Source of the DNA: Bacteroidales bacterium
GTDB taxonomy: Bacteria; Bacteroidota; Bacteroidia; Bacteroidales; 4484-276
DNA: 64,000 bases
NCBI GenBank assembly: GCA_036794825.1
Contig: DAIRGA010000022.1
Coordinates: 4,008-68,007 of the forward strand
Direction of reading: 5' to 3'
Shown: one piece after another, positions 12,342 through 61,033 of the stretch
Layout: each line of letters opens with the position of its first letter
How positions within the stretch are numbered: the first letter of the stretch is position 1
Translations under genes and position numbers: made by a program
Notes under the pieces: generated by a model
What the model was told of the DNA's origin: nothing
The model's input: only the letters and a program-made list of their open reading frames with translations
Database searches by the model: none

Positions 12342-13364
12342 TTACTTTATTAAGAAGGTAAACTTGTCGAAATTCTTGAGTGCGATACCGGTTCCGCGTG
12401 CCACTGCTCTCAGTGGATCTTCAGCTACGTGAATGGGCAATTTGGTTTTCAGGTGCAAACGTTTGTCGAGGCCGCGCAGCATCGAGCCGCCGCCGGCCAG
12501 GTAAATGCCTGTGCGGAAGATATCAGCCGACAACTCTGGTGGAGTCATCTCAAGAGCCTGCAGCACAGCGGTTTCTATTTTTGAAATGGATTTGTCGAGG
12601 CAATGAGCAATTTCGGTATAATTGACCACGATCTCTTTGGGAATACCGGTAAGCATATCGCGTCCGTGAACAGCAAAATCATCAGGTGGATTATCAAGCT
12701 CGGGCAGTGCAGCGCCGACCTCTATTTTGATGCGTTCGGCAGTGCGTTCACCAATGTTGATGTTGTGCTGCTTGCGCATGTAGTCCTCGATGTCGGCATT
12801 GAAGTCGTCGCCGGCAATGCGGATGGATTTGTTGTTTACAATACCGCCGAGCGCAATAACGGCAATCTCGCTTGTACCGCCACCTATATCAATAATCATG
12901 TTCCCGGTGGGTTCCAGCACATCTATTCCGATTCCGATAGCGGCAGCCATAGGTTCGTGGATCAGTTTTACCTCTTTGGCTCCAGCCTGTTCGGCGGAGT
13001 CCTTTACGGCACGCTCTTCAACCTCTGTGATCCCGGAAGGGATGCAGATAACCATTTTCAATGCCGGTGGAAATAATGATCCCCGGATACCGATCATTTT
13101 TATCATCTCCCTTATCATGAATTCGGCGGCCTGAAAGTCGGCAATTACACCATCGCGCAAAGGCCGGATGGTCTTTATGTTTTCGTGGGTTTTGCCATGC
13201 ATCATCTGCGCGCGCTTGCCCACAGCGATTATTTTGCCCGAGCTTCGCTCAATGGCTACTATAGAGGGTTCATCAACAACTACTTTGTCGTTATATATTA
13301 TGATTGTATTGGCCGTGCCAAGATCAATCGCAATTTCTTTGGTAAAAAATGAAAACAAGCCCAT
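12342..13364 (-). CDS. mreB: Rod shape-determining protein MreB (actin-like ATPase)
   Basis: 340 aa with actin-fold motifs IAIDLGTANT, DIGGGTSEIAVI and IYLAGGGSMLRGLD. Confidence 0.95.
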   Translation of the reverse strand: MGLFSFFTKEIAIDLGTANTIIIYNDKVVVDEPSIVAIERSSGKIIAVGKRAQMMHGKTHENIKTIRPLRDGVIADFQAAEFMIREMIKMIGIRGSLFPPALKMVICIPSGITEVEERAVKDSAEQAGAKEVKLIHEPMAAAIGIGIDVLEPTGNMIIDIGGGTSEIAVIALGGIVNNKSIRIAGDDFNADIEDYMRKQHNINIGERTAERIKIEVGAALPELDNPPDDFAVHGRDMLTGIPKEIVVNYTEIAHCLDKSISKIETAVLQALEMTPPELSADIFRTGIYLAGGGSMLRGLDKRLHLKTKLPIHVAEDPLRAVARGTGIALKNFDKFTFLIK

Positions 13365-13425
13365 ATTTTCTGGTTATAAAATCTTCAATTCATGTTTGGT
13401 AAAATCAAACGCAAAACTACTCTTT

Positions 13426-14958
13426 TTAATGTTTAAAATGTCGTATCCCGGTAAATACCATTGAAATACCTTTATTGTTGCAAAACTCAACCGAGTCGCT
13501 GTCTTTCACTGACCCACCCGGCTGAATCACTGCTGTGATACCCTCTTTTTGTGCAATTTCCACTGAGTCGGCAAATGGGAAAAACGCATCCGACGCCATT
13601 ACTGCCCCATGCAGGTCAAATCCGAATGATTTCGCCTTCTCGATGGCGTGCTTCACTGCATCAACCCTTGATGTCTGGCCTATTCCGCTGCCGATGAGCT
13701 GCTTGTTTTTTGCCAGGACGATGGCGTTGGATTTGGTATGCTTCACAATTTTGTTGGCAAAAAGGAGGTCTTCAATCTCAGCCTCCGTTGGTTTGGCATC
13801 GGTAACGAAATTCAACGATGCCTGAGTCTCCTGCACCAGGTCTTTGTCTTGTAAAAGTACGCCGTTGAGCAGTGATTTAAACTGCTTTTCAGGTAGTTGG
13901 AAATCTTTTCTTCGAAGGATTATCCTGTTTTTCTTTTGCTTGAGCAGCTCCAGTGCGGTTTGTTCGAAATCCGGAGCAATAAGCACTTCGAAAAAGAGCT
14001 CGCTGATTCCCGAAGCAGTATCATAATCTACTGGTCTGTTTGTAATTATCACTCCTCCGAATGCTGACAACGGATCGCCGGCCAGCGCTGCGTTCCAGGC
14101 TTCGGAGAGATTGTTGCGGCAGGCAAGTCCGCAGGCATTGTTGTGCTTGAGGATGGCTACAACGGTTTCATCAAATTCTTCGGCGAGGCTTATGGCGGCA
14201 TCAATGTCGTTCAGGTTGTTGTAAGAAATGGCTTTCCCGTTGAGCTGTTCGAAAAGCCCGGTAAGGTTTCCAAAGAAATTTCCTTCCTGATGCGGATTTT
14301 CGCCATAACGCATTGGACTTACATCAACAATACTCTGCTTGAAGACCGGCAACTTCGCCTCTCGGTTAAACCAGTTGAAAATAGCGGTATCGTAATGCGT
14401 CGAAACATTGAAAGCGTGTGCGGCAAAGAGTTTCCTCTCTTCGAAGGTAGTGCTGCCATTGTTCTTTTCATAAACCTCAAGAAATCCGGCATAATGCTCA
14501 ATGGAAGGCACGATTACGACATCACGGAAATTTTTAGCTGCTGCTCTGATAAGACTGATACCGCCAATGTCAATTTTTTCGATGATTTCCTGCTCGTTAT
14601 CAGTGCTTTGGAGCGTTGTTTCGAACGGGTAGAGGTCAACAATCACGAGGTCAATGGAGGGAATGCTGTATTGCTCGAACTCCTGTTGATCGGTTTCATG
14701 GTCGCGGCGGCCAAGAATTCCGCCGAAAATCAGCGGATGCAGCGTTTTCACCCTGCCGCCCAGAATGGAAGGGTAGGAGGTAATATCTTCCACCTTTTGG
14801 GCCGGAAAGCCTTGCTTTACAAGGTAATCGTAGGTTCCACCGGTGGAGATGATCTGCACTCCATGGCTCAGCAGCGATTTAACGATGGCGTCAATCCCGC
14901 TTTTGTAGTAAACCGATATTAGTGCAGTGGATATTTTATTGGAGGATAATGTGCTCAC
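13426..14958 (-). CDS. purH: Bifunctional AICAR formyltransferase / IMP cyclohydrolase PurH
   Basis: 510 aa. N-terminal MGS-like domain (ALISVYYKSG...IISTGGT, GRVKTLHP). The AICARFT domain ends ...GISMVFTGIRHFKH, the characteristic PurH C-terminus. Confidence 0.95.
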   Translation of the reverse strand: MSTLSSNKISTALISVYYKSGIDAIVKSLLSHGVQIISTGGTYDYLVKQGFPAQKVEDITSYPSILGGRVKTLHPLIFGGILGRRDHETDQQEFEQYSIPSIDLVIVDLYPFETTLQSTDNEQEIIEKIDIGGISLIRAAAKNFRDVVIVPSIEHYAGFLEVYEKNNGSTTFEERKLFAAHAFNVSTHYDTAIFNWFNREAKLPVFKQSIVDVSPMRYGENPHQEGNFFGNLTGLFEQLNGKAISYNNLNDIDAAISLAEEFDETVVAILKHNNACGLACRNNLSEAWNAALAGDPLSAFGGVIITNRPVDYDTASGISELFFEVLIAPDFEQTALELLKQKKNRIILRRKDFQLPEKQFKSLLNGVLLQDKDLVQETQASLNFVTDAKPTEAEIEDLLFANKIVKHTKSNAIVLAKNKQLIGSGIGQTSRVDAVKHAIEKAKSFGFDLHGAVMASDAFFPFADSVEIAQKEGITAVIQPGGSVKDSDSVEFCNNKGISMVFTGIRHFKH

Positions 14959-48298: not shown

Positions 48299-50425
48299 AT
48301 GGACGACAAAATTCTGATAGAGCGTATCCCGCTGTTGAGGATCATTAAAGTGCTGATATTATTAGCATTAGGCATGCAGTTGATTGTCATCTCACAAATG
48401 TACTTCTTCAGGGCAGATTTGTTTGCCGATCCTTACTATCTGTTTATCCGGTTGTTTCGGGGTACTGTTTTAACATTTGTTGCCGGTATGTTCCTGGTGT
48501 ATCCTGGAGTATTTGTAATCAAAAAATTGAACCGGAAATGGCCCTGGAAAAGAAATCCTATGAAACGCTTCTTCATTCAGTTTCCTTTTGCTGTTCTGGG
48601 TGGGTTACTTATCACACCGGTTATTATCCTGCCGGCCACCCTGTTTTTTGGTTTGGAGAGCGATTTTCAAACTCTGCTCAACAATGCCTATTATCTGGTG
48701 ATCTTAAATCTCTTCCTGATGTTGGTCCTTGAAGCAAGAATTTACTTTGATGAAAATGACAAATCGAAACGCGCAGCCGAAAGTTTTCAACAGAAACTGA
48801 TTATGGAAGCGGCAAATCGTGCAAAGGTTGAGGCACAAATTCATATTGAAGAGGAGAAAAACAAATATGCCCAAAAGCTGATCGAACAGGAAAAAGAGCT
48901 AAACAAGCAACTGGAGGAAGAGATCAGAGCACGAACGGTCGTTACCCGGCAACTCAACGAGAGTCGCGACCAGCTCAACAGCATACTTTCCAACCTGGCC
49001 GGAGCGGCTTACCGTTGCCATTTCGACGAGCATTATACCATGAAATATATCAGCGAAAAAATCTTCGACATTTCGGGCTTTCATGCGGCCGAACTAATCG
49101 AAAACTCATCCGTCCCTTTTGCAACCATCATTCATCCCGACGATCTGGAGTTCTGCAGGAAAAACATTGAGGATGCTGCTGTACAAAAATCCCACTACGA
49201 ATTTGAGTACAGGATCTTGCACAAAAGCGGAGAAACTGTCTGGATAAACGAAAATGGAAAGGCCATTTACAATGCGTTGGACGAGGTTGAATACTTGGAT
49301 GGAATCATTACTGACATCACCAGAAGGAAACATGCGGAGCTTGCCGCTGCCGAGAGCGAACGAAATTACAAGGAGATGATGGATTTCCTGCCGCAACCCA
49401 TATTCGAGCTGGATATCAACGGTAATATCCTCTTCAACAACAAAGCCGGACAGAAATTTTTCAATCTGCCTGATCCCGATGAGTCAGAAGAAAAAATATC
49501 GGCCCTGAATTTCTTTATTGAAGAGGATATCCCCAGGGTTATTCAGAACATTAAAAAATCAATTGAAAATCACGAAACCAGTCCTAATGAGTACACTGTA
49601 AAAAAGCCTGATGGAAGCCTTTGTCCCGTATTGATTTACGGATCTCCGATTGTTCGAGATAATCAGGTTGTGGGGCGCCGGGGAATTATCATTGATATTT
49701 CGGAACGTAAAAAGCAGGAGCTAAAACTGTTACAAGCCAAGGAAGAACTTGAACGGATCAACAATACCCTGGAGCAAAGCGTTACCGAGCGCACAAAGCA
49801 GCTTACCGAAGCCAATACGCAATTGCTTAAAATGCAAAAGGAAAACCTTCAGTCGCAGTTTGAAGTGCTGAAACAGCAGGTCAACCCACACTTCCTGTTT
49901 AACAGTTTGAATGTGCTGACCTCTCTCATCAAAATTGACCCCGACCTGGCCGAGTCGTTCACCGAAAGACTCTCAAAGGTTTATCGCTATGTGCTCGAAA
50001 ACAAAGAGAAAGATGTGGTGAGTCTGAGCACTGAGCTGGAGTTTTTAAATTCTTACATTTTCCTCCTGGAAATCAGGTTTATGAAAAAGCTTTTCATCCA
50101 AATCAATATTGACAAGTTATACTACGACTACCAGATTCTACCCATTGCCATTCAACTGATCATCGAAAATGCGATCAAACACAACACTTTTTCCAAGGTT
50201 CAACCTTTGAAAATTGAGATTTTTGTTGATGACAAGCAGCGGTTAAATATCATCAACAACCTCAATTTGAGAGAGACCAAGCTGGTTTCGACCGGTGTTG
50301 GTTTGGAAAACATCAATCGCCGGTATGCGCTTGTCTCCGATCATAAACCCGAATTCATCAAAACCAACGACCAATTTATAGCAAAGCTACCTTTGCTGAT
50401 GCCTGACAAAATTGAAACTAAATAA
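48299..50425 (+). CDS. Sensor histidine kinase, LytS/YehU-type (His_kinase domain) with TM region, coiled coil and two PAS domains
   Basis: 708 aa. NPHFLFNSLNVL (the PF06580-type H-box) and an HATPase region (IENAIKHN...GVGLENI). PAS-like segments lie between residues 220 and 480. Confidence 0.85.
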   Translation: MDDKILIERIPLLRIIKVLILLALGMQLIVISQMYFFRADLFADPYYLFIRLFRGTVLTFVAGMFLVYPGVFVIKKLNRKWPWKRNPMKRFFIQFPFAVLGGLLITPVIILPATLFFGLESDFQTLLNNAYYLVILNLFLMLVLEARIYFDENDKSKRAAESFQQKLIMEAANRAKVEAQIHIEEEKNKYAQKLIEQEKELNKQLEEEIRARTVVTRQLNESRDQLNSILSNLAGAAYRCHFDEHYTMKYISEKIFDISGFHAAELIENSSVPFATIIHPDDLEFCRKNIEDAAVQKSHYEFEYRILHKSGETVWINENGKAIYNALDEVEYLDGIITDITRRKHAELAAAESERNYKEMMDFLPQPIFELDINGNILFNNKAGQKFFNLPDPDESEEKISALNFFIEEDIPRVIQNIKKSIENHETSPNEYTVKKPDGSLCPVLIYGSPIVRDNQVVGRRGIIIDISERKKQELKLLQAKEELERINNTLEQSVTERTKQLTEANTQLLKMQKENLQSQFEVLKQQVNPHFLFNSLNVLTSLIKIDPDLAESFTERLSKVYRYVLENKEKDVVSLSTELEFLNSYIFLLEIRFMKKLFIQINIDKLYYDYQILPIAIQLIIENAIKHNTFSKVQPLKIEIFVDDKQRLNIINNLNLRETKLVSTGVGLENINRRYALVSDHKPEFIKTNDQFIAKLPLLMPDKIETK

Positions 50426-50435
50426 AGCAACTAAA

Positions 50436-51200
50436 ATGAAAGTCGTAATTATTGAAGATGAGGCATTTGCCACTTTGCGTTTGAAAAAGATGATCCTGGA
50501 TTATGATCCTGAAATAAAGATCATGGCAGAGCTTGAATCGGTGGCTGAATCAGTCAGATGGTTCAAAGCGAACCCCGAACCCGATCTGATTTTCCTTGAC
50601 ATCCATCTTGAGGATGATCTCAGCTTCGCCATTTTCGACCAGGTAAACATCTCCAGTCCGGTAATTTTTACCACAGCATTTGATGAATATGCCATCAAGG
50701 CATTTAAGCTCAAAAGCATTGACTACCTGCTGAAACCGATCGTTCACGAGGAACTTGCTGCTGCACTGAAAAAGTACGAGCAATTCAGCGGACTTCACCA
50801 CAGTTCGGTTGATTTGCAGTCGCTTTACAACCTGCTAACCGGAAAGGAAAAGAAGTACAAAGAACGGCTTTCCATTTCTATTGGTTCGAAGATTAAGATG
50901 GTGGAAGTGACTGATATTGCTTATGTTTATGTCATGGAAAAGGGTGTTTATCTGCGCACTTTCCAGGGGAATACCTACAGTATTGATTTTCCTCTCGATA
51001 AGCTGGAAGAGATGCTTGATCCCGGAAAATTTTTCAGAATTAACCGGAAATACCTGGTTAACATTTCATCAATCAATGATATGGTGGCTTACTCGCGCAG
51101 TCGTGTTAAACTGGAGCTCAAACCCAGAGCCGATGATGAGTTTGAAACGATTGTCAGCATTGACCGTTCGGCGGAGTTTAAAAAGTGGCTGAATCAGTAG
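50436..51200 (+). CDS. LytTR-family response regulator
   Basis: MKVVIIEDE...DLIFLDIHL (receiver domain) and a C-terminal LytTR DNA-binding domain (FFRINRKYLVN). The track ORF begins at a TTG (50412); the ATG at 50436 is the more likely start. Confidence 0.85.
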   Translation: MKVVIIEDEAFATLRLKKMILDYDPEIKIMAELESVAESVRWFKANPEPDLIFLDIHLEDDLSFAIFDQVNISSPVIFTTAFDEYAIKAFKLKSIDYLLKPIVHEELAAALKKYEQFSGLHHSSVDLQSLYNLLTGKEKKYKERLSISIGSKIKMVEVTDIAYVYVMEKGVYLRTFQGNTYSIDFPLDKLEEMLDPGKFFRINRKYLVNISSINDMVAYSRSRVKLELKPRADDEFETIVSIDRSAEFKKWLNQ

Positions 51201-51225
51201 AATTTTCAAATTAAAACAGCTGATC

Positions 51226-51558
51226 CTATGAGAATTGGCGGGCATTTTCCAGCAATTCGAATCCTGTCCTTTTTATTTCAACAACAAAAGGAATATCAGA
51301 TTGAAAATCCTCAAGAGAAATTGGATGTGGTTCAATCCGGCTATCAATTTGAGAAGCAAGCAGCATTAATTGAACCTGGGTATCAAAACGGTCAGAATCA
51401 GCTAGGTTTTTAAAAACTAATGCCAGATCAATATCGCTATCCTGATTATAGTTCCCCCTGGCATATGATCCAAAAAGATACACAGACTCAACATCAAGAT
51501 ACTTTCCCTTTATCAGTTTTACGAATTCTGTGATTGCTCTATCAACTGTTTTATCCAT
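51226..51558 (-). CDS. Nucleotidyltransferase-domain protein (MNT partner of a HEPN/MNT toxin-antitoxin pair)
   Basis: 110 aa with the pol-beta-type NTase motif LFGSYARGNYNQDSDIDLALV. Overlaps the upstream HEPN ORF by 40 nt. Confidence 0.8.
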   Translation of the reverse strand: MDKTVDRAITEFVKLIKGKYLDVESVYLFGSYARGNYNQDSDIDLALVFKNLADSDRFDTQVQLMLLASQIDSRIEPHPISLEDFQSDIPFVVEIKRTGFELLENARQFS

Positions 51559-51863
51559 TTTCTTAAATCTATTAGTTTCTCAATCCACTCAGTTGTAAAT
51601 TGCGAAGTACATCGCTGTTTAAAACTCAATTTATAATCATCATATCGGGCATTGATATTAAAAGCCGTAATAGTCACGAGTTGTTCTTTTATTATTTCAT
51701 CGCATTCCAAATCAGCTTTCTCAGCAAGCCTCAATAAATTATGAATGTAAGGTGGATAATCTGATTTTGCCTGTAAAAAATAGGCCTTCAGCAACTTCTC
51801 AAGCATTAAATGTCCGATGAATAGTGCCCAACTGTATCTTTTTGAATTGAACATATCCATCAT
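51519..51863 (-). CDS. HEPN-domain protein, 5'-truncated (missing about 25 N-terminal codons, which lie 9.1 kb upstream)
   Basis: MMDMFNSKRYSWALFIGHLMLEKLLKAYF...AFNINARYDDYK matches the Bacteroidota HEPN (PF05168-like) pattern, but begins inside helix 1. Homology continues 2 codons upstream (GAT ACT, to 51869) and then stops. Confidence 0.7.
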   Translation of the reverse strand: MMDMFNSKRYSWALFIGHLMLEKLLKAYFLQAKSDYPPYIHNLLRLAEKADLECDEIIKEQLVTITAFNINARYDDYKLSFKQRCTSQFTTEWIEKLIDLRKWIKQLIEQSQNS

Positions 51864-52248
51864 AGTATCGTTTTTGCGCTTGGCATTCGTGCGGGATTTC
51901 GGAGGACAAAACTGTCAACACAGCACTAAAGCCAAATTGAAAAACTGAACTTGAATTTAAGCACGTCACCCCGCATGACGCCAAACGCATGTTACCAGCT
52001 GGCGTTATTGTCCACCGTGTCTGTAAACCATTTTCGTTGTTGAGTTTCACTGTCATGTCGTGTTGGTCTTTGCGGTTGCGTCTATTAATTTTTTTTTAAA
52101 AGGGTTGGAAAAATTTTTTTGAATTTCTTTTCTGGGTGGCAAAGGTGGAAGCTCAGTTCGGTAAGCTCACTGCACCGCTTTTGCAATCCTTTGGTTTTAG
52201 CGCTGGCTTGTACGAATTATAAATGTGCTACACCCATGCGATGGCTTT

Positions 52249-55200
52249 TTATTTCGTCATTTCGTATGCTATCATTTCAGCTTGTTTTAAAACAGTCTCA
52301 GTCGCTAACATTTGCATATCGGGCGGATAACCATATTTTCTTAAAAGCCTTTTTACGGCAACTTTCAATTTTGCTTTTACACTCTCTTTGATTGTCCAAT
52401 CTATGGATGCATTTTGTCTAATAGTTTCTGTCAGCACAATGGCAAGTTCTCTTAGTTTGTCTTGTTGCATGAGTTCTCTTGCACTGTCGTTGTTGGCTAC
52501 TGCTGTGTAAAAAGCATATTCAAAGTCTGTCAAACCCATGTGCCTGGCTTCACTGTCCATGTCAACAATTTCTTTGCTCAGGTTGATGAGTTCTTCAATT
52601 ACTTCGGCTGCTGTCAGAATCTTGTTGTGGTATTTTTTAATGGCATTTTCCAGCATTTCCATCAAAGACTTGCTTTTTACAAGATTCTTTTTGGCTCTCG
52701 ATTTTATTTCATCATTCAGGAGTTTTTTCAAAACTTCCAAGGCAATATTTTTATGTTCCATTCCTTTCAGCTCCAATAAGAATTCTTCTGAAAGAATTGA
52801 AATATCAGGTTTCTTTATTCCAGCTGCATCGAAAACGTCAATCACTTGTTCAGAAACCAATGCTTTGTCAATGACTTGCCGAATTGTGGTTTCAATTTCT
52901 TCGTCTGTTCTGCCTGAACCTGTTCCGTCAAATTTTGCCAATCGTGCTTTCACTGCCTGGAAAAACGAAACTTCATCTTTTGCATCCATTGCCTGGTCAT
53001 GAGGAATGGCAATGGCAAAGGCTTTTGAAAGTGCTGTTACTTCGTTGATGTAACGTTTCTTTCCATCTTCTAAACCTAAAATGTGTTCTTCTGCTGCAAG
53101 TATCAGCGACAATTTTTTTGAAGTGTCGGCTTCAAAATAGGTTTCATATTCAAAGCCATGATACATTTGAGAAACAACTTCCAACTTCTCTAACATCAAT
53201 TGAACGGCTTGCTCTTGTAAAATAGTTGGGTCGCCTTTGCCTCCGGAATCCGAATAAAATGCCAAGGCCTTTTTCAAGTCGGCTGCAATTCCTAAATAAT
53301 CTACAATCAAACCACCTGGCTTGTCTTTGTAAACCCTGTTTACACGGGCAATAGCCTGCATCAGATTATGTCCTTTCATTGGTTTATCAATGTATAGGGT
53401 GTGGAGGCATGGTGCGTCAAAACCTGTGAGCCACATATCCCGGACTATAACCAATTGCAGTTCGTCATCAGGATTTTTCATTCTTTCGGCAAGCGTTCTT
53501 CTTTGTTCTTTAGTGGTATGATGTTTTGAAATTTTCGGACCATCAGAAGAAGCGGAAGTCATGACCACTTTTATCACTCCTTTATTCAAATCGTCTGAAT
53601 GCCATTCAGGTTTCAGGTCAATAATTGCCTGATACAAATCCGCTGCAATTCTGCGGCTCATGGAAACAATCATTCCTTTTCCTTCAAACACCTCCTGTCT
53701 TTTGCTAAAATGTGCAATAATGTCTTTGGCAATATTCTTTATCCGATTCTCACTACCAACCAGGGCTTCCAATTGTGTCCATTTGGCTTTTGCCTTTTGT
53801 GTGTTGGTTAAATCTTCCTGTTCCAATTCACCATCCAGTTCCTCAACTAACCTTTTGCCCTCTTCGCTTAGGTTGACCTTTGCCAAGCGACTTTCGTAAT
53901 AAATGCGGACTGTTGCACCATCTTCAACGGCTTGGGCTATATCGTAAATGTCCACATAGTTTCCGAAAACCGCTGGCGTGTTTACATCTGTATTTTCAAT
54001 GGGTGTTCCTGTAAAGCCCAGATAGGTTGCATTTGGCAAAGCATCCCGCATATACTTGGCAAAACCGTAAACGATTTTTTTTCCAATTAAATTGCCGGCA
54101 TAATCTTTAGAATCAATGGTTTTGGCCTTAAAACCATATTGTGTTCTGTGTGCTTCGTCTGCAATAACAACTATGTTATTCCGATTAGAAAGCATTTCAT
54201 AAACATTGCCTTCTTCAGGTTGAAATTTTTGAATGGTGGTAAATACAACACCGCCCGAAGCTACTTTCAATAAGTCTTTTAATTGGTTTCTATCGTCTGC
54301 TTGAACTGGTTCTTGTCTTAGCAATTGTTTTGATGCTGCAAACGTATCAAACAGTTGGTCGTCCAAATCATTACGGTCTGTAATTACAAGTATGGTCGGA
54401 TTGTCTAAAACCAAAACGATTTTTCCTGTGTAGAAAACCATTGACAATGATTTTCCGCTTCCTTGTGTATGCCAGACTACTCCACCTTTTCTGTCGCCTA
54501 TAGGTTGATTTTTTACTCCGGGCACTCCATAGCTTTCAGGAGACTCCTGCACTAAATTCCCCTCCTCTGGAGCTGTACCCGATAGAGTGTGATGCTCCAT
54601 TCCCCTCCCCTGGAGGGGTGCCCGAAGGGCGGGGTGGTCAAAAAGCCTTTGCATTGTACTATATAGTTGATTCATCACATGTTCAACAGGAATATGAATT
54701 ACTGTCAAACCCAATGACTCCAGGTAGGCATCCCTCTGAGCATCATACTCTTCTTTGTCATCATGGCTGCTTCCATCTATTTCAATAACCACTTGACAAT
54801 TGCTGCAATAGAAATCTACAATGTAGTTTCCTATGATTTTTTGCCGGTCAAAATCAAATCCTTTGAATTGCTTATTCTTTACTTGATTCCAAAAAAGCAC
54901 TTCGGAGAGATTGCCTGCTTGGCGAAGTTTTCTTGCTCGTTCTTTGAGTTTGGGATTGTAAGGAAGTTCGAAGTAGTTTCTGCTGGCTCTTTTTACCACC
55001 CCGTCAGACTTCGTCTGCCACCCCTCCAATGGAGGGGAATTGAACCCCGATGCTCTCAAAGTGGATTCAACGGCTCGGTTTACAGCATAATATTGATGAT
55101 AAGCCGCCAATTTTTTTACTGTAGAAATGGTGGTAATACCCGTTACCGTATCTTCCTTTTTCGATTTTTCAAAAACAATAAAATGCCTGATTAAGTCAAT

Positions 55201-55965
55201 CAGGGTTTCTTTGTTCAACATGCCTTGAATTAACGTTTCTAACTGACTTACCAAATGCGATGCTTCAGCTTTACCGTCTGCCGATTTCCAAGCCATAAAG
55301 CGGCTAAATCCCGCAGAGATTGAACCTGCTTTGGCTTCCAGTCCATCAGAAATAACCACAAATCCGTTGTAAGTGAACAGACCTGGAATGATGGCTTTAT
55401 AGGTTTCTACTTGTTTGAAAGCAGAATTGATTGTGGTGTTCTCGTCCGCAGCATTTTTTAACTCAATAACCACCAACGGAATTCCATTGACAAATAAAAT
55501 TACATCAGGACGTTTGTTATTGCCGTTTTCAATGATGGTAAATTGGTTGGTTACGACAAATTCGTTGTTGTGTGGATTCTTAAAATCTATCAGCCAAACA
55601 CGGTCGCCCCTGTCGTCTCCATCAACACGTTTTGAAACAGGGATACCTTCGGTTAATAAACGATGAAAGATTTCATTGTTGGCAAGCAATTCAGGCGAAG
55701 CAATGCGTTGAATTTCTTTGATGGCTTCTGCCTGTGCATCGGATGGAATACTGCGATTAATTCTTTTGACGGCAGTTTGCAACCTGTTTACCAGCAAAAC
55801 CTGGGCGTAGCTCTCTCGGGTATCCTGACCACCCTGGCCTTCAGTCGCCAATCCCTGGGAGGTGAATTCGGGGGCAATATCGGGGGCATAGATGTACTCA
55901 TAGCCAAGTTGAGCGAGCAACTCAATGGCAAAGGTTTCTATTGTATGTTCAGTTATGGGTTTCAA
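52249..55965 (-). CDS. hsdR: Type I restriction enzyme R subunit (HsdR) with an in-frame DUF559 endonuclease-domain insertion
   Basis: 1238 aa. N-terminal PD-(D/E)xK region (PDVILFVNGIPLVVIELKN). Helicase motifs GGVVWHTQGSGKSLSM, VVIADEAHRTQYG, LGFTGTP and MQAIARVNR. C-terminal DUF3387-like tail. About 177 extra residues sit between TLRASG and GDRKGGVVWHTQ. Confidence 0.9.
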   Translation of the reverse strand: MKPITEHTIETFAIELLAQLGYEYIYAPDIAPEFTSQGLATEGQGGQDTRESYAQVLLVNRLQTAVKRINRSIPSDAQAEAIKEIQRIASPELLANNEIFHRLLTEGIPVSKRVDGDDRGDRVWLIDFKNPHNNEFVVTNQFTIIENGNNKRPDVILFVNGIPLVVIELKNAADENTTINSAFKQVETYKAIIPGLFTYNGFVVISDGLEAKAGSISAGFSRFMAWKSADGKAEASHLVSQLETLIQGMLNKETLIDLIRHFIVFEKSKKEDTVTGITTISTVKKLAAYHQYYAVNRAVESTLRASGFNSPPLEGWQTKSDGVVKRASRNYFELPYNPKLKERARKLRQAGNLSEVLFWNQVKNKQFKGFDFDRQKIIGNYIVDFYCSNCQVVIEIDGSSHDDKEEYDAQRDAYLESLGLTVIHIPVEHVMNQLYSTMQRLFDHPALRAPLQGRGMEHHTLSGTAPEEGNLVQESPESYGVPGVKNQPIGDRKGGVVWHTQGSGKSLSMVFYTGKIVLVLDNPTILVITDRNDLDDQLFDTFAASKQLLRQEPVQADDRNQLKDLLKVASGGVVFTTIQKFQPEEGNVYEMLSNRNNIVVIADEAHRTQYGFKAKTIDSKDYAGNLIGKKIVYGFAKYMRDALPNATYLGFTGTPIENTDVNTPAVFGNYVDIYDIAQAVEDGATVRIYYESRLAKVNLSEEGKRLVEELDGELEQEDLTNTQKAKAKWTQLEALVGSENRIKNIAKDIIAHFSKRQEVFEGKGMIVSMSRRIAADLYQAIIDLKPEWHSDDLNKGVIKVVMTSASSDGPKISKHHTTKEQRRTLAERMKNPDDELQLVIVRDMWLTGFDAPCLHTLYIDKPMKGHNLMQAIARVNRVYKDKPGGLIVDYLGIAADLKKALAFYSDSGGKGDPTILQEQAVQLMLEKLEVVSQMYHGFEYETYFEADTSKKLSLILAAEEHILGLEDGKKRYINEVTALSKAFAIAIPHDQAMDAKDEVSFFQAVKARLAKFDGTGSGRTDEEIETTIRQVIDKALVSEQVIDVFDAAGIKKPDISILSEEFLLELKGMEHKNIALEVLKKLLNDEIKSRAKKNLVKSKSLMEMLENAIKKYHNKILTAAEVIEELINLSKEIVDMDSEARHMGLTDFEYAFYTAVANNDSARELMQQDKLRELAIVLTETIRQNASIDWTIKESVKAKLKVAVKRLLRKYGYPPDMQMLATETVLKQAEMIAYEMTK
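54520..55050 (-). mobile_element. DUF559 (Vsr-like PD-(D/E)xK endonuclease) cassette with ~50-bp double-hairpin terminal inverted repeats, inserted in frame in hsdR
   Basis: Encoded segment: LPYNPKLKERARKLRQAGNLSEVLFWNQVKNKQFKGFDFDRQKIIGNYIVDFYCSNCQVVIEIDGSSHDD...RDAYLESLGLTVIHIP, the DUF559 pattern. TIRs are at 54599-54645 (attcccctcccctggaggggtgcccgaagggcggggtggtcaaaaag) and 54989-55040 (reverse complement attcccctccattggaggggtggcagacgaagtctgacggggtggtaaaaag). An extra half copy lies at 54555-54572. Confidence 0.75.
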
Positions 55966-56579
55966 TTACTGTTTACTATATCTGTGATTCCTTGCCAGAA
56001 AATTTGAAAACTTGTTGATCTGTTTCTTAATGGTTCCATGTAAACAGATATGTTTCTGGCTAGTTCGGTTTTTCTTATTCCATGCTTGTAATAACCTTTA
56101 GACTTCAATAGTCTTTCAAATGCTTCACATGTTCCTCCTTCAATTTGATCGGGAACACGAAATTGTGCTTTTTTATGAAAGTTAGCAGAAACTCTTGGGT
56201 ATGCTGCACTGACTGCTTCGGGGTCGCCAAAATACCACGATTCGAGTTCTTCTATGGCAATCCTGTTCATAACTGTAAAAGTCATCTCGCCTTCTGCTTC
56301 TGATTTTGTTATTAAGCCTGCTCCATTTGCACAACTTTCAAGATATTTCTTCAGTTCGTGGCAGTCCTGATTATCCCGGTCAACGAGCACAACTATTTTA
56401 AAATCTTGCGTTATCCAATTTTTATAGGCACGAAGCTCCATTTTCAGCTTCTTTAATAAATCCTGTTTACCCTGAAAGGTAATAATCTTATAAGTATGCT
56501 CGCCGGTGATGAGTTTTGGCAGCAAATTGTGCAATGCCATTTCTGCAGAAAGTTCTTCAACCAAAAATTCCAGATGCAT
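55962..56579 (-). CDS. DUF4276-family protein (Toprim-like fold suspected), partner of the upstream ATPase
   Basis: 205 aa. MHLEFLVEELSAE (N-terminal acidic E motif), KIVVLVDRDNQD (DxD-type motif) and RIAIEELESWYFGD match my recollection of the DUF4276 pattern. The start is 1 nt after the ATPase stop; the stop overlaps the hsdR ATG by 4 nt. Confidence 0.65.
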   Translation of the reverse strand: MHLEFLVEELSAEMALHNLLPKLITGEHTYKIITFQGKQDLLKKLKMELRAYKNWITQDFKIVVLVDRDNQDCHELKKYLESCANGAGLITKSEAEGEMTFTVMNRIAIEELESWYFGDPEAVSAAYPRVSANFHKKAQFRVPDQIEGGTCEAFERLLKSKGYYKHGIRKTELARNISVYMEPLRNRSTSFQIFWQGITDIVNSN

Positions 56580-56580
56580 T

Positions 56581-57804
56581 TTATCTCTTTTTGGGATTAA
56601 ATTTTAAACTACCCTGATTAACAAGCGGATCGCCTACCTCGAAGTGCCCTTCTACCCACAAATTTCCCAATACAGCTCCCTCACTCACAAAATCATTGAT
56701 CCCACTCATAGCTGCCGCACATTTTGCGTTTGTATAACCCTTCTCATCCCTGTATAAAACCCAAAGTTCATCAGGCTTCAATCCATTTACAAAAAAAGGA
56801 GAGTGCGTTGTAACCATGAGTTGTGAAGTCTCTGCTGATGCTCTGCATTCTTCTGATAATTCAGGCAATAAACGTGGGTGAAGTTGATTTTCCGGTTCTT
56901 CAATTCCTATTAATTGGGGTGGCTCAGGATCATACAAAACAGTGAGGTAAGCCAACAATTTTAAGGTTCCATCTGAAGCAAATTTTGACAAGACCGGACG
57001 CTCAAATGGAGCATCCTTTAATTGCAACAGCAGTCTTCCATCCTGCATAAGCTCTGTTTCAACTCTTTCGAGACGGGGTACTCTTTCGGCAAGAATCCTC
57101 AGGATTTTCCCCAAACGTTCAGGATGTTGTTCTTTAAGGAATTGGATCACATTCGGAAGGTTATCGCCCGTTGCGGAAAGACGTTCCTGCGGGCCGGCTT
57201 CAGTGATTCCACGTGTTTGATCGGCGGTGAGGTACGACAAGTACCAGCCTGTAATAAATCTACGAAGCGCAATCACCCTCGGATGCTTTGATAGTTGCCC
57301 AAGCGTGTTTACTGCCAACATCTCGGAACTGTCAAGCGATTCCTCTATTCTTTGGTCTGAAATATCGGGAGATTCCCCCGTGATTACTCTTCCGACACCT
57401 TTTGCAAAGTCCAGAAATGCGAAAGGTCTCCCTGCCGGGCTTCTTTTCCACAATAATCTTTCGCTTGCTACAAATGGCCCTTTGTTGTTTTCATCAATCT
57501 TAAGCTCATAGGTAATAAGCGGTGATTTTGGGGTTTCCCTGTATTTTATCTCAAACTCAATGGGGCCGGTGCATCCGCGTGTGCGCAATTCTTTAAAACG
57601 GCCCCGCTTATCCCATGCTTTACGCAAGCCTACGGAGAAGCACTCGCTTAGGAATGCGAAAACATCAAACACCGTTGATTTTCCACTGCCGTTCGGTCCT
57701 AAAAAAACCGTAAGCGGCTTGATATTTTTAAGTTCAAGGTTTTGAAGCGCCCTGTAATTCTGGACGCGCAAATACTCAATTCTGGGAACAGCTTTTTCTC
57801 TCAT
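56581..57804 (-). CDS. ABC/SMC-type AAA ATPase (AAA_21/AAA_15-like) of OLD/AriA/RloA-like defence ATPases
   Basis: 407 aa. Walker [12 protein letters not shown], signature-like [11 protein letters not shown], Walker [16 protein letters not shown]-loop VTTHSP. No fused nuclease domain. Confidence 0.8.
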
Positions 57805-57832
57805 GTCAAAATCATTTGTTTACAAAAGTACA

Positions 57833-58972
57833 TTAACTATTCATTTCCACCCTCACCTCCCCACTCATCAACTTCGGCAACAAGTTATCACGCAATGATG
57901 TGAGGGTGCGGATTTGGGTTTGGTTGGATTTGATTTTTTTCAAAGTTGCCTCACACCAATCAATGGTATTATTTAATATTTTTTCTGATGGCACGCTGAT
58001 TTTCAAATCTTTTATTTGGTCAAAAGTTATCTGAGGAAAAGTACCACTTCTTGACTCAGCTATCATTTGCAACCAATCTACTGTAGATGAATTTGTTAAA
58101 TAGAAATATACGAACGCTTGGCTAACTACTTTTTTTGACCTTAATACCATTAGTTTTGTTGACACTACATAATTATCAGCATCAAACTCAATATAAGCCC
58201 ATCTTCCATTTGCTGGTCTAATTTCACTAAATAAAATGTCGTCTTTTTGAATGGATTTCTTTGCTTGACCAGGTAATCCCTTTACATCCGAAGGATTGTG
58301 CTCAAGAACATTTCCTAAGTAAATATCAGAAGTATTTAAAAATACTATTGTTGGATAGGGAAACTTGTGGGTAATAGAAACGGTTTCTATCAAGTCTCCT
58401 AAATTAAGTTGATATTCCCACTCCTCCTTCGCTTCCTCCACAAACCACTGCCTAAACAGGGTTTCGGCCATTTTTTCCAAGGTGGCGTTTTGGCGGTGCA
58501 GCAGGTCTATTTTGTCGTCTAAACTGCTGAGGACGGAGGCAATAGCGGTTTGTTCTTTTTCATTAGAAGGAAGAAAAAAGGGAATAGATGTCAGTGCTGC
58601 TTTATTTAACTTTGGCTGAACAGCACCCGTTAAAAATGGATTCAAATCAAGATTTTGCATATAATAAACTATCAATTTATTATGAAAATCTTTCTTCCCT
58701 TTAACAATATGAGCATGATTGTTTACCCAAAATTGACCACTTGCAACGAAGGCAATTGGTGTATTTCTGGATTTTAAATTCTCTCCATCTTCCGAGATTA
58801 ATACATGATCTCCATCAAAAATATAATCGTTTACATAATCAATAATGCCTGAGGCACCATAATATGGAAAGTCACCCTTTTTCTTTGCTCTCTCCATTGA
58901 GCTGAGAGGAATTCTTCTGTGATTAAGAATTTCCGCAAAATCTTCGATTGAATATTCCTTCCACTCACTCAT
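57833..58972 (-). CDS. hsdS: Type I restriction enzyme specificity subunit (HsdS)
   Basis: 379 aa. Two target-recognition halves separated by conserved helices ([40 protein letters not shown] and C-terminal [22 protein letters not shown]). Confidence 0.9.
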
Positions 58973-59107
58973 TAACTTTAATCTTTAAAAGGTTAGCGGA
59001 AATGACTTCATTGAGTTGGGCTTCTTCTTTCAATTGTGCTTCCAACTCTGCTTTTAAACTGGCAAAGCGTTCCGCAAAATTGAAGTCGTCTTCTTCATCG
59101 AGTAAAA
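58965..59107 (-). pseudogene. hsdM: Out-of-frame C-terminal tail of hsdM (44 codons) created by a +1 frameshift in a T4 (A4 on + strand) run
   Basis: In the -1-shifted frame the sequence reads (G)[46 protein letters not shown], the normal acidic/coiled-coil HsdM tail. Its stop (58967-58965) overlaps the hsdS ATG (58972-58970) in the usual coupled arrangement. Deleting one A from aaaa at 59104-59107 restores a 525-aa HsdM. Confidence 0.75.
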
Positions 59108-60543
59108 CCTACATATCTACCCGGTGTAAGCACATAGTCCAATTCTTTTACTTTGCTAAGAGGGGCAGAAGCACAAAAGCCCGCAACGTCTTCATACTTG
59201 CCATCAAGGTTTCTCCAATTGTGGTAAGTGCTGGTAATTTTATCAATGTCTTCCTGAGAAAGTTCACGGGTTCTGCGGTTTATCAAATGCCCTAAGTTTC
59301 GGGCATCAATAAATAATATTTCGTTGCTGCGGTCTCTATGACCACCCCGCCCTGCGGGCACCCCTCCAGTGGAGGGGAATTGGGAGCCCTTGCGGTTACG
59401 GCTCATAAACCATAAGGCAGCAGGAATTTGTGTATTTAAAAACAACTTGGCAGGCAGGTTTACAATGCAATCAATCAAGCCATTTTCAACCAAAGCTTTT
59501 CTTATGTCGCCTTCGCCTGAGGTTTTAGAAGTCAATGCACCTTTTGCCAATACCACACCTGCTTGTCCGCTAGGTGCTAAATGGTAAATGAAATGTTGCA
59601 TCCAGGCAAAGTTGGCGTTGCCTGTTGGTGGAGTTCCGTATTGCCAACGACCATCGGTTCGCATTAAGTCACCGCCCCAATCACTCACATTGAACGGTGG
59701 ATTGGCAATGATGTAATCGGCTTTCAGGTCTTTGTGTGCATCGTTTAAAAAAGAACCTTCGTTGTTCCATTTCACTTGTGAGCTGTCAATACCACGAATA
59801 GCCAGGTTCATTTTAGCCAATCGCCAGGTGGTTTGGTTGCTCTCTTGTCCGTAAATGGAAATGTCGTTTACTTTTCCCTGGTGTTCGGTTACAAATTTTT
59901 CGGAGTGAACAAACATACCACCCGAACCGCAACAAGGGTCAAATACCCGTCCTTTATATGGCTCCAGCATTTCAACCAATAATTCCACAACGCTTCTTGG
60001 CGTATAGAACTGTCCGCCTTTCTTGCCTTCTGCAAGGGCAAACTCACCCAGGAAATATTCAAAAACGTGTCCGAGCACATCGGCACTTCTTGCTTTGGCA
60101 TCGCCTAAGGCAATGTTTCCAACCAGGTCAATGAGTTCACCCAAACTGGTCGGGTCCAGATTTTGTCGGGCAAATACTTTGGGTAGAACACCTTTTAGGG
60201 AATTGTTTTCTACTTCAATAGCATCCATTGCGGCATCAACTGTGATGCCTATTGTAGGTTGTTTTGCATGTGATTGCAGAAACTTCCAGCGGGCAGATGG
60301 CGGAACAAAGAATACATTTTCAGCTTTGTATTCGTCTTTGTCTTCGGGGTCAGCTCCGTTTTCTTCGTCTGCTTTTAGTCTTGCATACAATTCTTCAAAA
60401 GCATCAGAGATGTATTTCAGGAAGATTAACCCCAAAACAATATGCTTGTATTCGGCAGCATCTATGTTCTTGCGGAGTTTGTCCGCAGCTTTCCAGAGTT
60501 GTTTTTCTAAAGGTTCTTCTGTTGTTGCTTTTTGTTTAGCCAT
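59095..60543 (-). CDS. hsdM: Type I restriction enzyme methyltransferase subunit (HsdM), C-terminally truncated by frameshift and carrying a 47-nt in-frame repeat insertion
   Basis: 482 aa. N-terminal HsdM_N (LWKAADKLR...[13 protein letters not shown]), AdoMet motif [11 protein letters not shown], catalytic IIANPPFN. Ends abruptly at PGRYVGFTR*. Confidence 0.9.
59334..59380 (-). repeat. Solo copy of the double-hairpin element that flanks the DUF559 cassette, translated in frame within hsdM (…[14 protein letters not shown]…)
   Basis: The reverse complement, attcccctccactggaggggtgcccgcagggcggggtggtcatagag, matches the 54599-54645 repeat at 43 of 47 positions. Hairpins are CCCCTCC-ac-TGGAGGGG and GCCC-gca-GGGC. 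Confidence 0.8.
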
Positions 60544-60964
60544 TATGTTCTATTAAATTTTAATTCGTTTTTAGTCTGCTAATTTATGTTTTTAATGCCC
60601 ATTAATGTCATTTGGTGCGGTGGCAAGAAATGGCTTCCCGAAAAATCGGGACAGGCTTTTTGGTTTTGCGAAGGGTCGGCTTGTGTGTCGGGCAAAACCA
60701 AATGTGCCATTTGCGGGCTGGCATAGAATTTACTCACAGAACTTTTGTTTTCAATGGTGTTCGTGAATACTTCGTATTTCAAAATATTTTGTGCGGTGGG
60801 GAAAAAAATAAAACACAGAAGGGTAGGCAATGAGTGTCGGTTTACTCGTGGTCCGTTTGATGTATCGTTTTTATGTCTGTGTTCACCTGTCAAAATGGTT
60901 TACTTTTTCTCGTTTAAGTTCTTGTCTGTTTGCTGTGTTGTGTCGTCCTACGCTTGCTGGTAAC

Positions 60965-61033
60965 ATAGTCATCGTTGGAGCTGTCAACCCAGTATTTGAT
61001 TAATTTTTCCTTCTGAAATATTTTACTATCCAT
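60965..61033 (-). pseudogene. Orphan 5' fragment (23 codons) of the HEPN gene, separated from its body by the 9.1-kb island
   Basis: The ATG at 61033 gives MDSKIFQKEKLIKYWVDSSNDDY, the usual HEPN helix-1 start (..YW...S..DY.T..(M/L)F..KRY). It then reads into unrelated sequence and stops at 60914. Joined to 51869-51519 it gives ...WVDSSNDDY-DTMMDMFNSKRYSWALFIGH..., about 139 aa. Confidence 0.6.

Follow-up and report, generated by a model that had tools for sequence, protein, structure and literature searches.

The type I restriction-modification operon on the minus strand of this window (the whole stretch of DNA that was analysed, 64 kb) raises the question of how a short palindromic sequence, of a kind that also ends a DUF559 nuclease cassette in hsdR, came to lie within the reading frame of hsdM and to be translated there. 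The first-pass annotation had described a 47-nt sequence in hsdM that is identical at 43 of 47 positions to the cassette end, in the opposite orientation, and had suggested selection for frame-preserving insertions, the footprint of an excised DUF559 cassette, or a target preference of the element as possible reasons. Our repeat search of the window returned the same inverted match, with arms at 54599-54645 and 59334-59380 (~4.7 kb apart) that are 91% complementary (43/47).

The hsd operon and its repeat units

The operon comprises hsdM, hsdS, an AAA_21/DUF4276 gene pair, and hsdR. Given its HsdM_N and N6_Mtase domains, and the presence of hsdS and hsdR in the same operon, the hsdM product is a type I restriction-modification methylase; it shares 85–95% identity with its closest 120 HsdM homologues, the named ones of which are from Bacteroidota. 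The features relevant to the repeat are as follows.

59095..60543, minus strand: hsdM open reading frame (482 a.a; Pfam N6_Mtase, 5e-106, and HsdM_N), shortened by a +1 frameshift near the 3′ end
59339..59381, minus strand: solo repeat unit in hsdM (covariance model score 56.4 bits; 43/47 match to 54599-54645; net +39 nt compared to the empty allele)
59361..59377: hairpin A of the solo unit (7-bp stem CCCCTCC/GGAGGGG, 3-nt loop)
59349..59359: hairpin B of the solo unit (G-CCC-GCA-GGG-C), the family-variable, covarying hairpin
57833-58972, minus strand: hsdS, a member of the type I operon
52249..55965, minus strand: hsdR open reading frame (1238 a.a; Pfam HSDR_N, SWI2_SNF2, T1RH-like_C, and DUF559), host of the cassette
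55826..55868, minus strand: decayed unit near the HsdR N-terminus (10.8 bits, E 0.44; also found by the repeat search), read as ..PEFTSQGLATEGQGGQ..
54993..55041, minus strand: upstream unit of the hsdR cassette, as seen in gene orientation (50.9 bits), with a longer hairpin B (GGCAGAC-GAAG-TCTGAC), read as NSPPLEGWQTKSDGVV
54646..54951, minus strand: DUF559 (Vsr-like PD-(D/E)XK) domain, in frame, HsdR a.a 339-440 (Pfam PF04480, 5.4e-30; closest solved structure 3HRL)
54598..54640, plus strand: inverted unit at the downstream end of the cassette (56.2 bits), into which the DUF559 frame continues
54555..54592, plus strand: partial extra unit directly beyond the cassette, found by the repeat search (palindrome with 2 mismatches), read as ..SGTAPEEGN..

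Insertions are present in this operon as annotated, although their number is not two; besides three full units, there is a partial one (54555-54592) and a decayed one (55826-55868). The downstream cassette unit (54598..54640) is the copy with which the hsdM sequence had originally been compared. At the HsdR N-terminus, where the decayed unit of the window lies, loci L001, L099/L160, and L121 have an intact unit and loci L030 and L100 have none. We ruled out an intein or intron as the nature of the hsdR cassette, as no Hint/intein domain was detected via Pfam, no intron was detected via Rfam, and the open reading frame is continuous. The hsdR DUF559 cassette had no match in plasmids.

Structure of the solo unit

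On the minus strand, the solo unit reads AATT-CCCCTCC-ACT-GGAGGGG-TG-CCC-GCA-GGG-C-GGGGTGGT-CA, and contributes 13 residues between Q and H. The general formula of the unit is (A)ATT-CCCCTCC-NNT-GGAGGGG-TG-[variable hairpin]-(C)GGGGTGGT, giving 43 bases with two hairpins. Using a covariance model (R1), which was built from unit copies of other organisms and then run over the window, the hsdM copy was recovered with E ~1e-16 (56.4 bits); the only other matches were the copies in hsdR, with none in the remaining ~55 kb. The core palindrome (CCCCTCCNNTGGAGGGG, ≤2 mismatches) gave seven strand-matches at four sites across the 64-kb window, all in the hsd operon, compared to a chance expectation of 0.11 matches, and seven were reached in 0 of 100 shuffles.

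The 61-nt stretch around the hsdM unit is predicted to fold as DNA at −15.9 kcal/mol (z = −2.2) into two adjacent hairpins and a weak third stem in the flank. No stop codon occurs in any of the six frames of the window hsdM copy. A search of Rfam with positions 52000-61000 (E up to 1) returned nothing relevant, with no family for the unit and no intron, and the 71-nt stretch around the unit had no match in GenBank phages or complete E. coli genomes.

Insertion into the HsdM loop

The unit lies in the HsdM loop between the LWF strand and the ILFIDA strand, a loop that is hypervariable and Gly/Pro/Ser-rich in many HsdM orthologues. Measured from anchor to anchor, the empty allele L002, which reads ..AAAAACGGGAAGTTCAGAGAC.. 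(DNA ..CGTAAAAACGGGAAGTTCAGAGACCGAAGC..), spans 78 nt and the window 117 nt, a net difference of 39 nt (13 a.a) in frame; the span is 111–117 nt in L001, L099, and the window, all three of which contain the unit. A short, repeat-free loop (..SRNRKNGKFRDRS..) was noted in 54 of the 121 aligned HsdM sequences (the window and its best 120 homologues), and the loop is without an insert in most of 80 metagenomic HsdM loci, such that repeat-less orthologues do not carry the inserted residues. The closest solved HsdM structure, 3KHK (E 3e-137), aligns with a 12-a.a gap exactly at the insert; this alignment was used in place of an AlphaFold model of HsdM (36-sequence alignment), which was unusable (mean pLDDT 42.7).

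The covariance model score, the empty alleles, and the 3KHK gap support the annotated reading of the hsdM loop sequence as a solo copy of the DUF559-cassette-end element, inserted in frame into a variable loop. The size requires correction, with a net 13 residues (12 compared to 3KHK) rather than roughly 15, and 39 nt rather than the ~45 nt that an orthologue alignment had been anticipated to show. Comparison of the alleles resolved neither a target-site duplication nor the exact junction; the loop flanks differ, and AATT is itself palindromic. A search for a target-site motif between empty and filled alleles at four sites likewise returned no consensus beyond the (A)ATTC start of the element itself. 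The AATT tag could be part of the element or of the target.

Reuse of insertion sites in HsdM and HsdR

The same HsdM loop holds units in both orientations. Forward units in different orthologues carry a hairpin B of GCCC..GGGC or GGCT..AGCC, and reverse units, read as HPALKGTPPKEGN, carry GCCC-TTTA-GGGC or GCCAC-TT-GTGGC. In L133, a DUF559-less forward-plus-reverse doublet (GGGGTGGT-C-ACCACCCC) lies exactly at this site, and palindromes of unrelated sequence lie in the same loop in L183, L174, L197, L169, L135, and L136. In a neighbour-joining tree of HsdM, the unit carriers are scattered among the empty alleles. That hairpin B differs among the units at one site speaks for several independent acquisitions and, taken with both orientations and the unrelated palindromes, indicates a site that is repeatedly used or at least permissive. 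The unrelated palindromes are also what a purely selective filter would leave.

Three further sites behave alike, namely the HsdM WRN/LDG/KYED site (empty in the window), the HsdR N-terminus, and the HsdR site before helicase motif I. The latter holds the cassette in the window, L001, L099/L160, L140, L188, L192, and in Cloacimonadales (L030), Calditrichia (L100), and Balneola (L121), holds a collapsed mini-doublet in L136, and is empty in L135 and 35 other operons. Across these sites, the units are read as FPSxGGV..GRGG, NSPPxEGW..GVV, HPAL.., and ..PPxEGN, using at least two forward and at least two reverse frames at different sites, with every host open reading frame staying open. Given the different frames at different sites, frame choice is not part of the mechanism, and the common trait is an open host reading frame, which lends support to the initial suggestion of selection for frame-preserving insertions.

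A repeat family across at least 15 phyla

An exact-pattern scan (CCCCTCCNNTGGAGGGGTG, then 8–22 free bases, then GGGGTGGT) matched 10 viral contigs and at least 120 genome stretches from at least 15 phyla. The matched taxa comprise Cyanobacteriota, Bacillota, Bacteroidota, Alpha-, Beta-, and Gammaproteobacteria, Desulfobacterota, Planctomycetota, Fibrobacterota, Chlorobiota, Spirochaetota, Cloacimonadota, Chloroflexota, Armatimonadota, Elusimicrobiota, and Calditrichota. Pseudanabaena ELA607, Ca. Porisulfidus, Clostridium CROMO_A_128, and Pseudomonadales Ast373_bin18 each contributed several of the listed stretches, indicating that the unit is multi-copy in these genomes. Two listed stretches (L112 and L113) are from a Rickettsiales MAG.

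Among the matches listed, nearly all aligned copies have (A/G)ATT or AATT as their 5′ flank, and hairpin B is present as 110 distinct sequences, of which 75% form a perfect stem of at least 3 bp, compared to 17% of shuffles. In the gap-free alignment A1 (28 copies), helix 2 displayed compensatory changes in three of its five pairs, with 95.7% of cells paired and a covariation score of 0.214 (0.065 in shuffles; reached by 0 of 500). Hairpin A is an invariant 7 bp, and hairpin B is kept in structure and free in sequence. The hairpin B loops are mostly GNA, closed by C-G, a combination that makes an especially stable DNA mini-hairpin and suggests a DNA-level rather than an RNA structure. The commonest hairpin B type family-wide, among the matches listed, is GCCC-GAA-GGGC, which is also the type of the hsdM copy; the 43/47 match to the hsdR copy is therefore no proof of local copying.

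The ~240 units in the 130 listed loci occur as ~92 solos, 27 forward>reverse doublets, ~21 reverse<>forward doublets (after the removal of ~10 artefacts of the self-complementary hairpin A), 13 tandem pairs, and 13 unit>DUF559<unit cassettes, solos being the commonest state among the matches listed. The doublet spacers are unrelated to one another, which points to the unit itself as the module. We rejected the idea that the units are strictly stop-free by design, as a stop codon occurs in some of the six frames in 47% of units compared to 82% of shuffles (i.e., depleted but present). Only about one unit in two lacks stops in every frame, so that strict adaptation to coding DNA is not a property of the family.

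The repeat family is apparently undescribed. No description of the unit family or of the DUF559 cassettes was found in the literature, Rfam, or annotated phage, plasmid, and E. coli records, an absence that is no proof. One literature match to DUF559, in a S. suis preprint, proved to be DUF5590.

Concentration in restriction genes

When R1 was run over 86 contigs of this hsd operon family (888 kb), we noted 23 units, all of which (23/23) lie inside hsdM or hsdR; these two genes account for 28% of the bases, and zero units were found in hsdS, accessory genes, or host flanks (counts uncorrected for ancestry). Across the 40 operons with both genes visible, hsdM units occur in three of the five operons with an hsdR cassette compared to one of the 35 without (Fisher 0.004, likewise uncorrected for ancestry). 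The window is an additional operon with both a cassette and a solo unit.

In the unbiased pattern scan, clear units within open reading frames (among the matches listed) were located in HsdR (4 loci), HsdM (1 locus), a type ISP enzyme, and two N6_N4 methylases, with others in an MFS transporter, MnmE, and a glycosidase. In-frame units in open reading frames that remain open were seen in HsdM, HsdR, a type III Mod-like methylase, a type ISP enzyme, an MFS transporter, MnmE, and a glycosidase. Restriction genes are strongly over-represented among the intragenic copies. The target preference that had been suggested at the outset is partly supported by the reuse of the same loops and by the 23/23 units in hsdM or hsdR, although a purely selective filter would fit these observations also.

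Association with DUF559

The DUF559 domain of the window has 3354 homologous clusters at E ≤ 1e-20, mostly standalone proteins of 116–230 a.a, and many of them on contigs of <2 kb. In 100 of the best 120 of these 3354 clusters, the DUF559 core is followed by HP[AS][LFM], the translation of ACCACCCCGC.. at the start of the inverted unit, and unit-encoded peptides occur at the N-terminus in 41 of the best 120 homologues; the gene and its flanking units therefore physically overlap. With the units masked and all open reading frames at ≤1.5 kb clustered by single linkage (130 listed loci), the dominant neighbour cluster covered 25 of the 130 loci and joined DUF559-bearing frames with HsdR hosts, with DUF559 detected in 22. 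The next cluster comprised five loci, and no transposase recurred within 1.5 kb of the units in these 130 loci. DUF559 is thus the only protein family recurring beside the units there, and most units (~90 solos as well as doublets) have no DUF559 inside their 8-kb stretch.

We know of no activity for DUF559, and 3HRL, the closest solved relative of the window domain, is a structural-genomics entry. A survey of the PD-(D/E)XK superfamily places DUF559 with Vsr and the homing endonuclease I-Bth0305I (PMC3424549). Predicted programmed-inversion targets are enriched in genes annotated as "DUF559 domain-containing protein" (PMC9881135), an enrichment that inverted units at DUF559 genes would explain.

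Origin of the hsdM copy

Our preferred explanation, to which we give a probability of roughly 60%, is that a selfish structured repeat of REP/RPE-like character, linked to DUF559, entered the HsdM loop and survived owing to preservation of the frame and its position in a loop. Small DUF559 (Vsr-like nuclease) genes are bracketed by two inverted units, into which their reading frame extends, and on this view the solos, inverted doublets, and arrays are non-coding members or remnants of the same family. The DUF559 nuclease may recognise the tagged hairpins and drive their copying, either through REP/RAYT-like transposition or through homing-type break-induced copying, with the hsdR cassette of the same operon as a likely local source of the nuclease or the template. 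One unit entered the HsdM loop, adding 39 nt translated as 13 residues. Copies that are in frame, stop-free, and located in loops would be the ones that survive, and the hsdM unit probably persists thanks to a length divisible by three, the absence of a stop codon, and a loop that tolerates insertions. More tentatively, and with the odds somewhat against it, the units and their bracketed DUF559 genes may form an undescribed cross-phylum selfish system, resembling REPIN-RAYT, driven by a nuclease, largely intragenic, translated in frame, and preferring restriction-modification genes.

The solo unit might instead be what is left of a larger element in this loop (an inverted doublet or a complete DUF559 cassette) that lost one half or its interior. 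The L133 forward-plus-reverse doublet at exactly the HsdM loop site, the other orthologues with the forward or the reverse half alone, and the collapsed mini-doublet of L136 at the hsdR cassette site can all be read in this way, and singlets are regarded as decayed doublets in REPIN biology (PMC3337134). However, DUF559 is present at the HsdM loop site in 0 of the best 120 protein homologues and 0 of 80 metagenome loci, the forward half of the L133 doublet has a different hairpin B than the forward units of the window, L001, and L160, and solos are the commonest state among the listed loci. We consider this origin unlikely. The excised DUF559 cassette put forward in the first-pass annotation gained no direct support, as DUF559 was at the HsdM site in no orthologue examined, whereas the DUF559-less doublet of L133 keeps a doublet remnant in contention. 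An origin by copying from the end of the hsdR cassette, through ectopic gene conversion or template switching inside the operon and with no element-encoded enzyme, is improbable, even with the 43/47 match and identical hairpin B stem of the downstream cassette unit 4.7 kb away, the co-occurrence of hsdM units with hsdR cassettes, and the known promotion of template switching by palindromes. The flanks of the hsdM and hsdR copies share no homology able to prime conversion, unrelated phyla have this same unit type as the family consensus, and the HsdM-loop units of other operons differ from their own cassette ends.

A function for the host, with the unit serving as an inversion site paired with the inverted hsdR copy (phase variation) or as an RNA hairpin modulating hsdM expression, would draw on the 47-nt inverted repeats 4.7 kb apart, the stability of the hairpins, and the enrichment of the DUF559 annotation at predicted programmed inversions (PMC9881135). 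Against this, a Pfam search detected no recombinase gene in the operon, an inversion between the two copies would disrupt hsdM as well as hsdR, an insert is lacking altogether in about half of the close HsdM orthologues, and the unit has no Rfam match, making such a role very improbable. The loop is hypervariable and Gly/Pro/Ser-rich in many orthologues, as would be expected if there were no repeat element and the likeness were due to chance or convergence in a low-complexity loop, yet this is refuted to near certainty by the model E of ~1e-16, the seven palindrome matches against 0.11 expected, and the same 43-nt architecture in more than 120 unrelated loci.

Implications

Palindromic repeats within genes have been described in Rickettsia and a small number of REP-rich species, and have been treated as lineage-specific oddities. 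To our knowledge, RAYT-linked REPs are the only ones among them with a known mobilising enzyme. Here, a single 43-nt structured unit is found in at least 15 phyla and forms a physical fusion with a nuclease family without an assigned role. The operon also illustrates that selfish DNA can reside within the reading frames of a type I restriction system that is itself highly mobile. For annotation purposes, the units account for odd Gly/Pro-rich loops and length variation of restriction-modification proteins. If DUF559 acts on the hairpins, this would constitute a new enzyme-repeat partnership and a first function for DUF559, and would explain both the appearance of DUF559 genes as false "programmed inversion" targets and the fragmentation of metagenome assemblies at DUF559 genes; protein engineering would also gain positions in HsdM and HsdR that naturally tolerate insertions. 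The solo copy thus leads to a widespread, apparently unnamed partnership of repeat and nuclease that is directly testable.

Comparison with known systems

By itself, the solo hsdM copy is a modest finding, being a variant of the known in-frame intragenic palindromic repeats. REPs tagged GTAG or CGTC have been found inside genes (Di Nocera et al. 2013, PMC3733652), and Rickettsia palindromic elements (RPEs) are in-frame palindromic repeats in genes (reviewed in PMC10969869). As in these cases, the palindromic repeat here sits in frame, leaves the gene open, and adds a short peptide, often in loops or linkers, with some genes hit repeatedly. The unit is 43 nt, compared to ~100–150 bp for long RPEs (a separation made by description, not by sequence), and, unlike RPEs and intragenic REPs, it has a candidate partner gene, is spread across phyla, and lies mostly in restriction-modification genes in the in-ORF cases observed.

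The closest parallel in organisation is with the REP/REPIN-RAYT systems, which likewise have short palindromic units in many dispersed copies (singlets, inverted doublets, and clusters), a single enzyme gene bracketed by two inverted units, and a short conserved tag at the hairpin end. The bracketed gene is DUF559 (Vsr-like PD-(D/E)XK) here and a Y1 (RAYT) transposase there, the tag is AATT instead of GTAG or CGTC, and each unit here has two hairpins. Furthermore, REPINs are lineage-specific and vertically inherited, whereas the unit here occurs in at least 15 phyla and is intragenic in the hsd operon family.

Vsr-like (EDxHD) homing endonucleases, such as I-Bth0305I (PMC3239194), have a nuclease in the same structural clade as DUF559, and the filling of the same hsdR position in Bacteroidales, Calditrichia, Balneola, and Cloacimonadales, with empty alleles also in existence, is homing-like. 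In contrast to homing endonucleases, the DUF559 cassette has no intron or intein around it, forms a translated portion of the host protein, has at both ends hairpin repeats that are also found alone, and occurs in several different host genes, such that no single long target explains it. The non-coding inverted doublets resemble non-autonomous derivatives of the cassette, as MITEs do of their parents; their spacers are, however, mutually unrelated, no transposase-bearing parent IS is known, and the solo copy lacks terminal inverted repeats of its own. Compared to the known in-frame intragenic repeats, the differences here are the AATT-tagged two-hairpin unit, its spread across phyla, the DUF559 partner in place of a tyrosine transposase, and the concentration in restriction genes.

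Hairpin DNA within HsdM

In several of the loci compared with the window (L183, L174, L197, L169, L135, and L136), the HsdM loop that in the window holds a solo copy of the AATT-tagged, 43-nt double-hairpin unit (site 1) instead carries palindromes from outside this unit family, such as CATTCCCGC-GCAG-GCGGGAATC, AATCCCGC-AATAA-GCGGGA, and CCTCCCC-TGTT-GGGGAGG. The same site contains tandem peptide repeats in the protein homologues P0044 and P0104 and in the loci L211 and L213. The site-1 loop is a collector of many kinds of hairpin DNA.

HsdM has a second insertion hotspot, which is unoccupied in the window:

~59190-59217, second HsdM insertion hotspot (WRN/LDG/KYED), empty in the window

A full unit is present at this position in the loci L133 and L192, with that of L133 in a different reading frame (NSPPSEGWQPEADGVV), while the unit in L136 has decayed. 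Among the protein homologues, inserts at the second hotspot were noted in P0005, P0006, P0013, and P0016, one of which is a double insert.

Arrays and heavily colonised loci

Several units lie head-to-tail as arrays in L079 (Ca. Haliotispira prima), L030, L087, and L100. The HsdR of L100 includes the translation of four units in tandem, upstream of its DUF559 domain. Of the loci seen, L019, from the MAG 'bacterium RXS1_metabat.bin.37', was the most heavily colonised: its type ISP/MmeI-like restriction-modification genes contain ~ten units and a DUF559 cassette (a Vsr-like nuclease gene bracketed by two inverted units), all of them in frame and spread over two large neighbouring ORFs of 952 and 593 aa. 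For many of the nearest homologues of DUF559 (P0121-P0240), contigs <2 kb are the only known source, which would fit short-read assemblies being broken up by cassettes present in multiple copies.

Frameshift at the 3′ end of hsdM

At the 3′ end of hsdM in the window (~59098-59118), we noted a +1 frameshift, with a T added in GGTTTTACTCGATGAAGAAGAC, owing to which the ORF stops at 482 aa. The last ~44 HsdM residues (ending KIKVNE) are preserved in the next frame (58975-59097), and the truncated 482-aa product is recorded from 3 contigs. Either the frameshift is real, making hsdM a pseudogene or placing it in one phase state, or it is a sequencing error in a homopolymer.

Operon setting and apparent mobility

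The hsd operon looks horizontally mobile. The G+C content of the hsd region is 39-42% (50001-60000), compared to 45-49% in most of 1-40000, and HsdM of the window shares 85-95% identity with homologues named as Saprospiraceae, Bacteroidales, Chitinophagales, Flexibacter, and Flavobacterium. At the orthologous locus L134, an IS66-family element (TnpB_IS66 and DDE_Tnp_IS66, 13018-14913) follows hsdM and a Bro-N gene, and no hsdS or hsdR was seen between hsdM and the contig end. In the window, AAA_21 ATPase and DUF4276 genes (55962-57804, minus strand) lie between hsdS and hsdR; this pair matches HEC-01A/B, listed in PADLOC as a candidate pair of defence genes (E 1e-168 and 3e-85, respectively), and is therefore a second defence module embedded in the type I operon.
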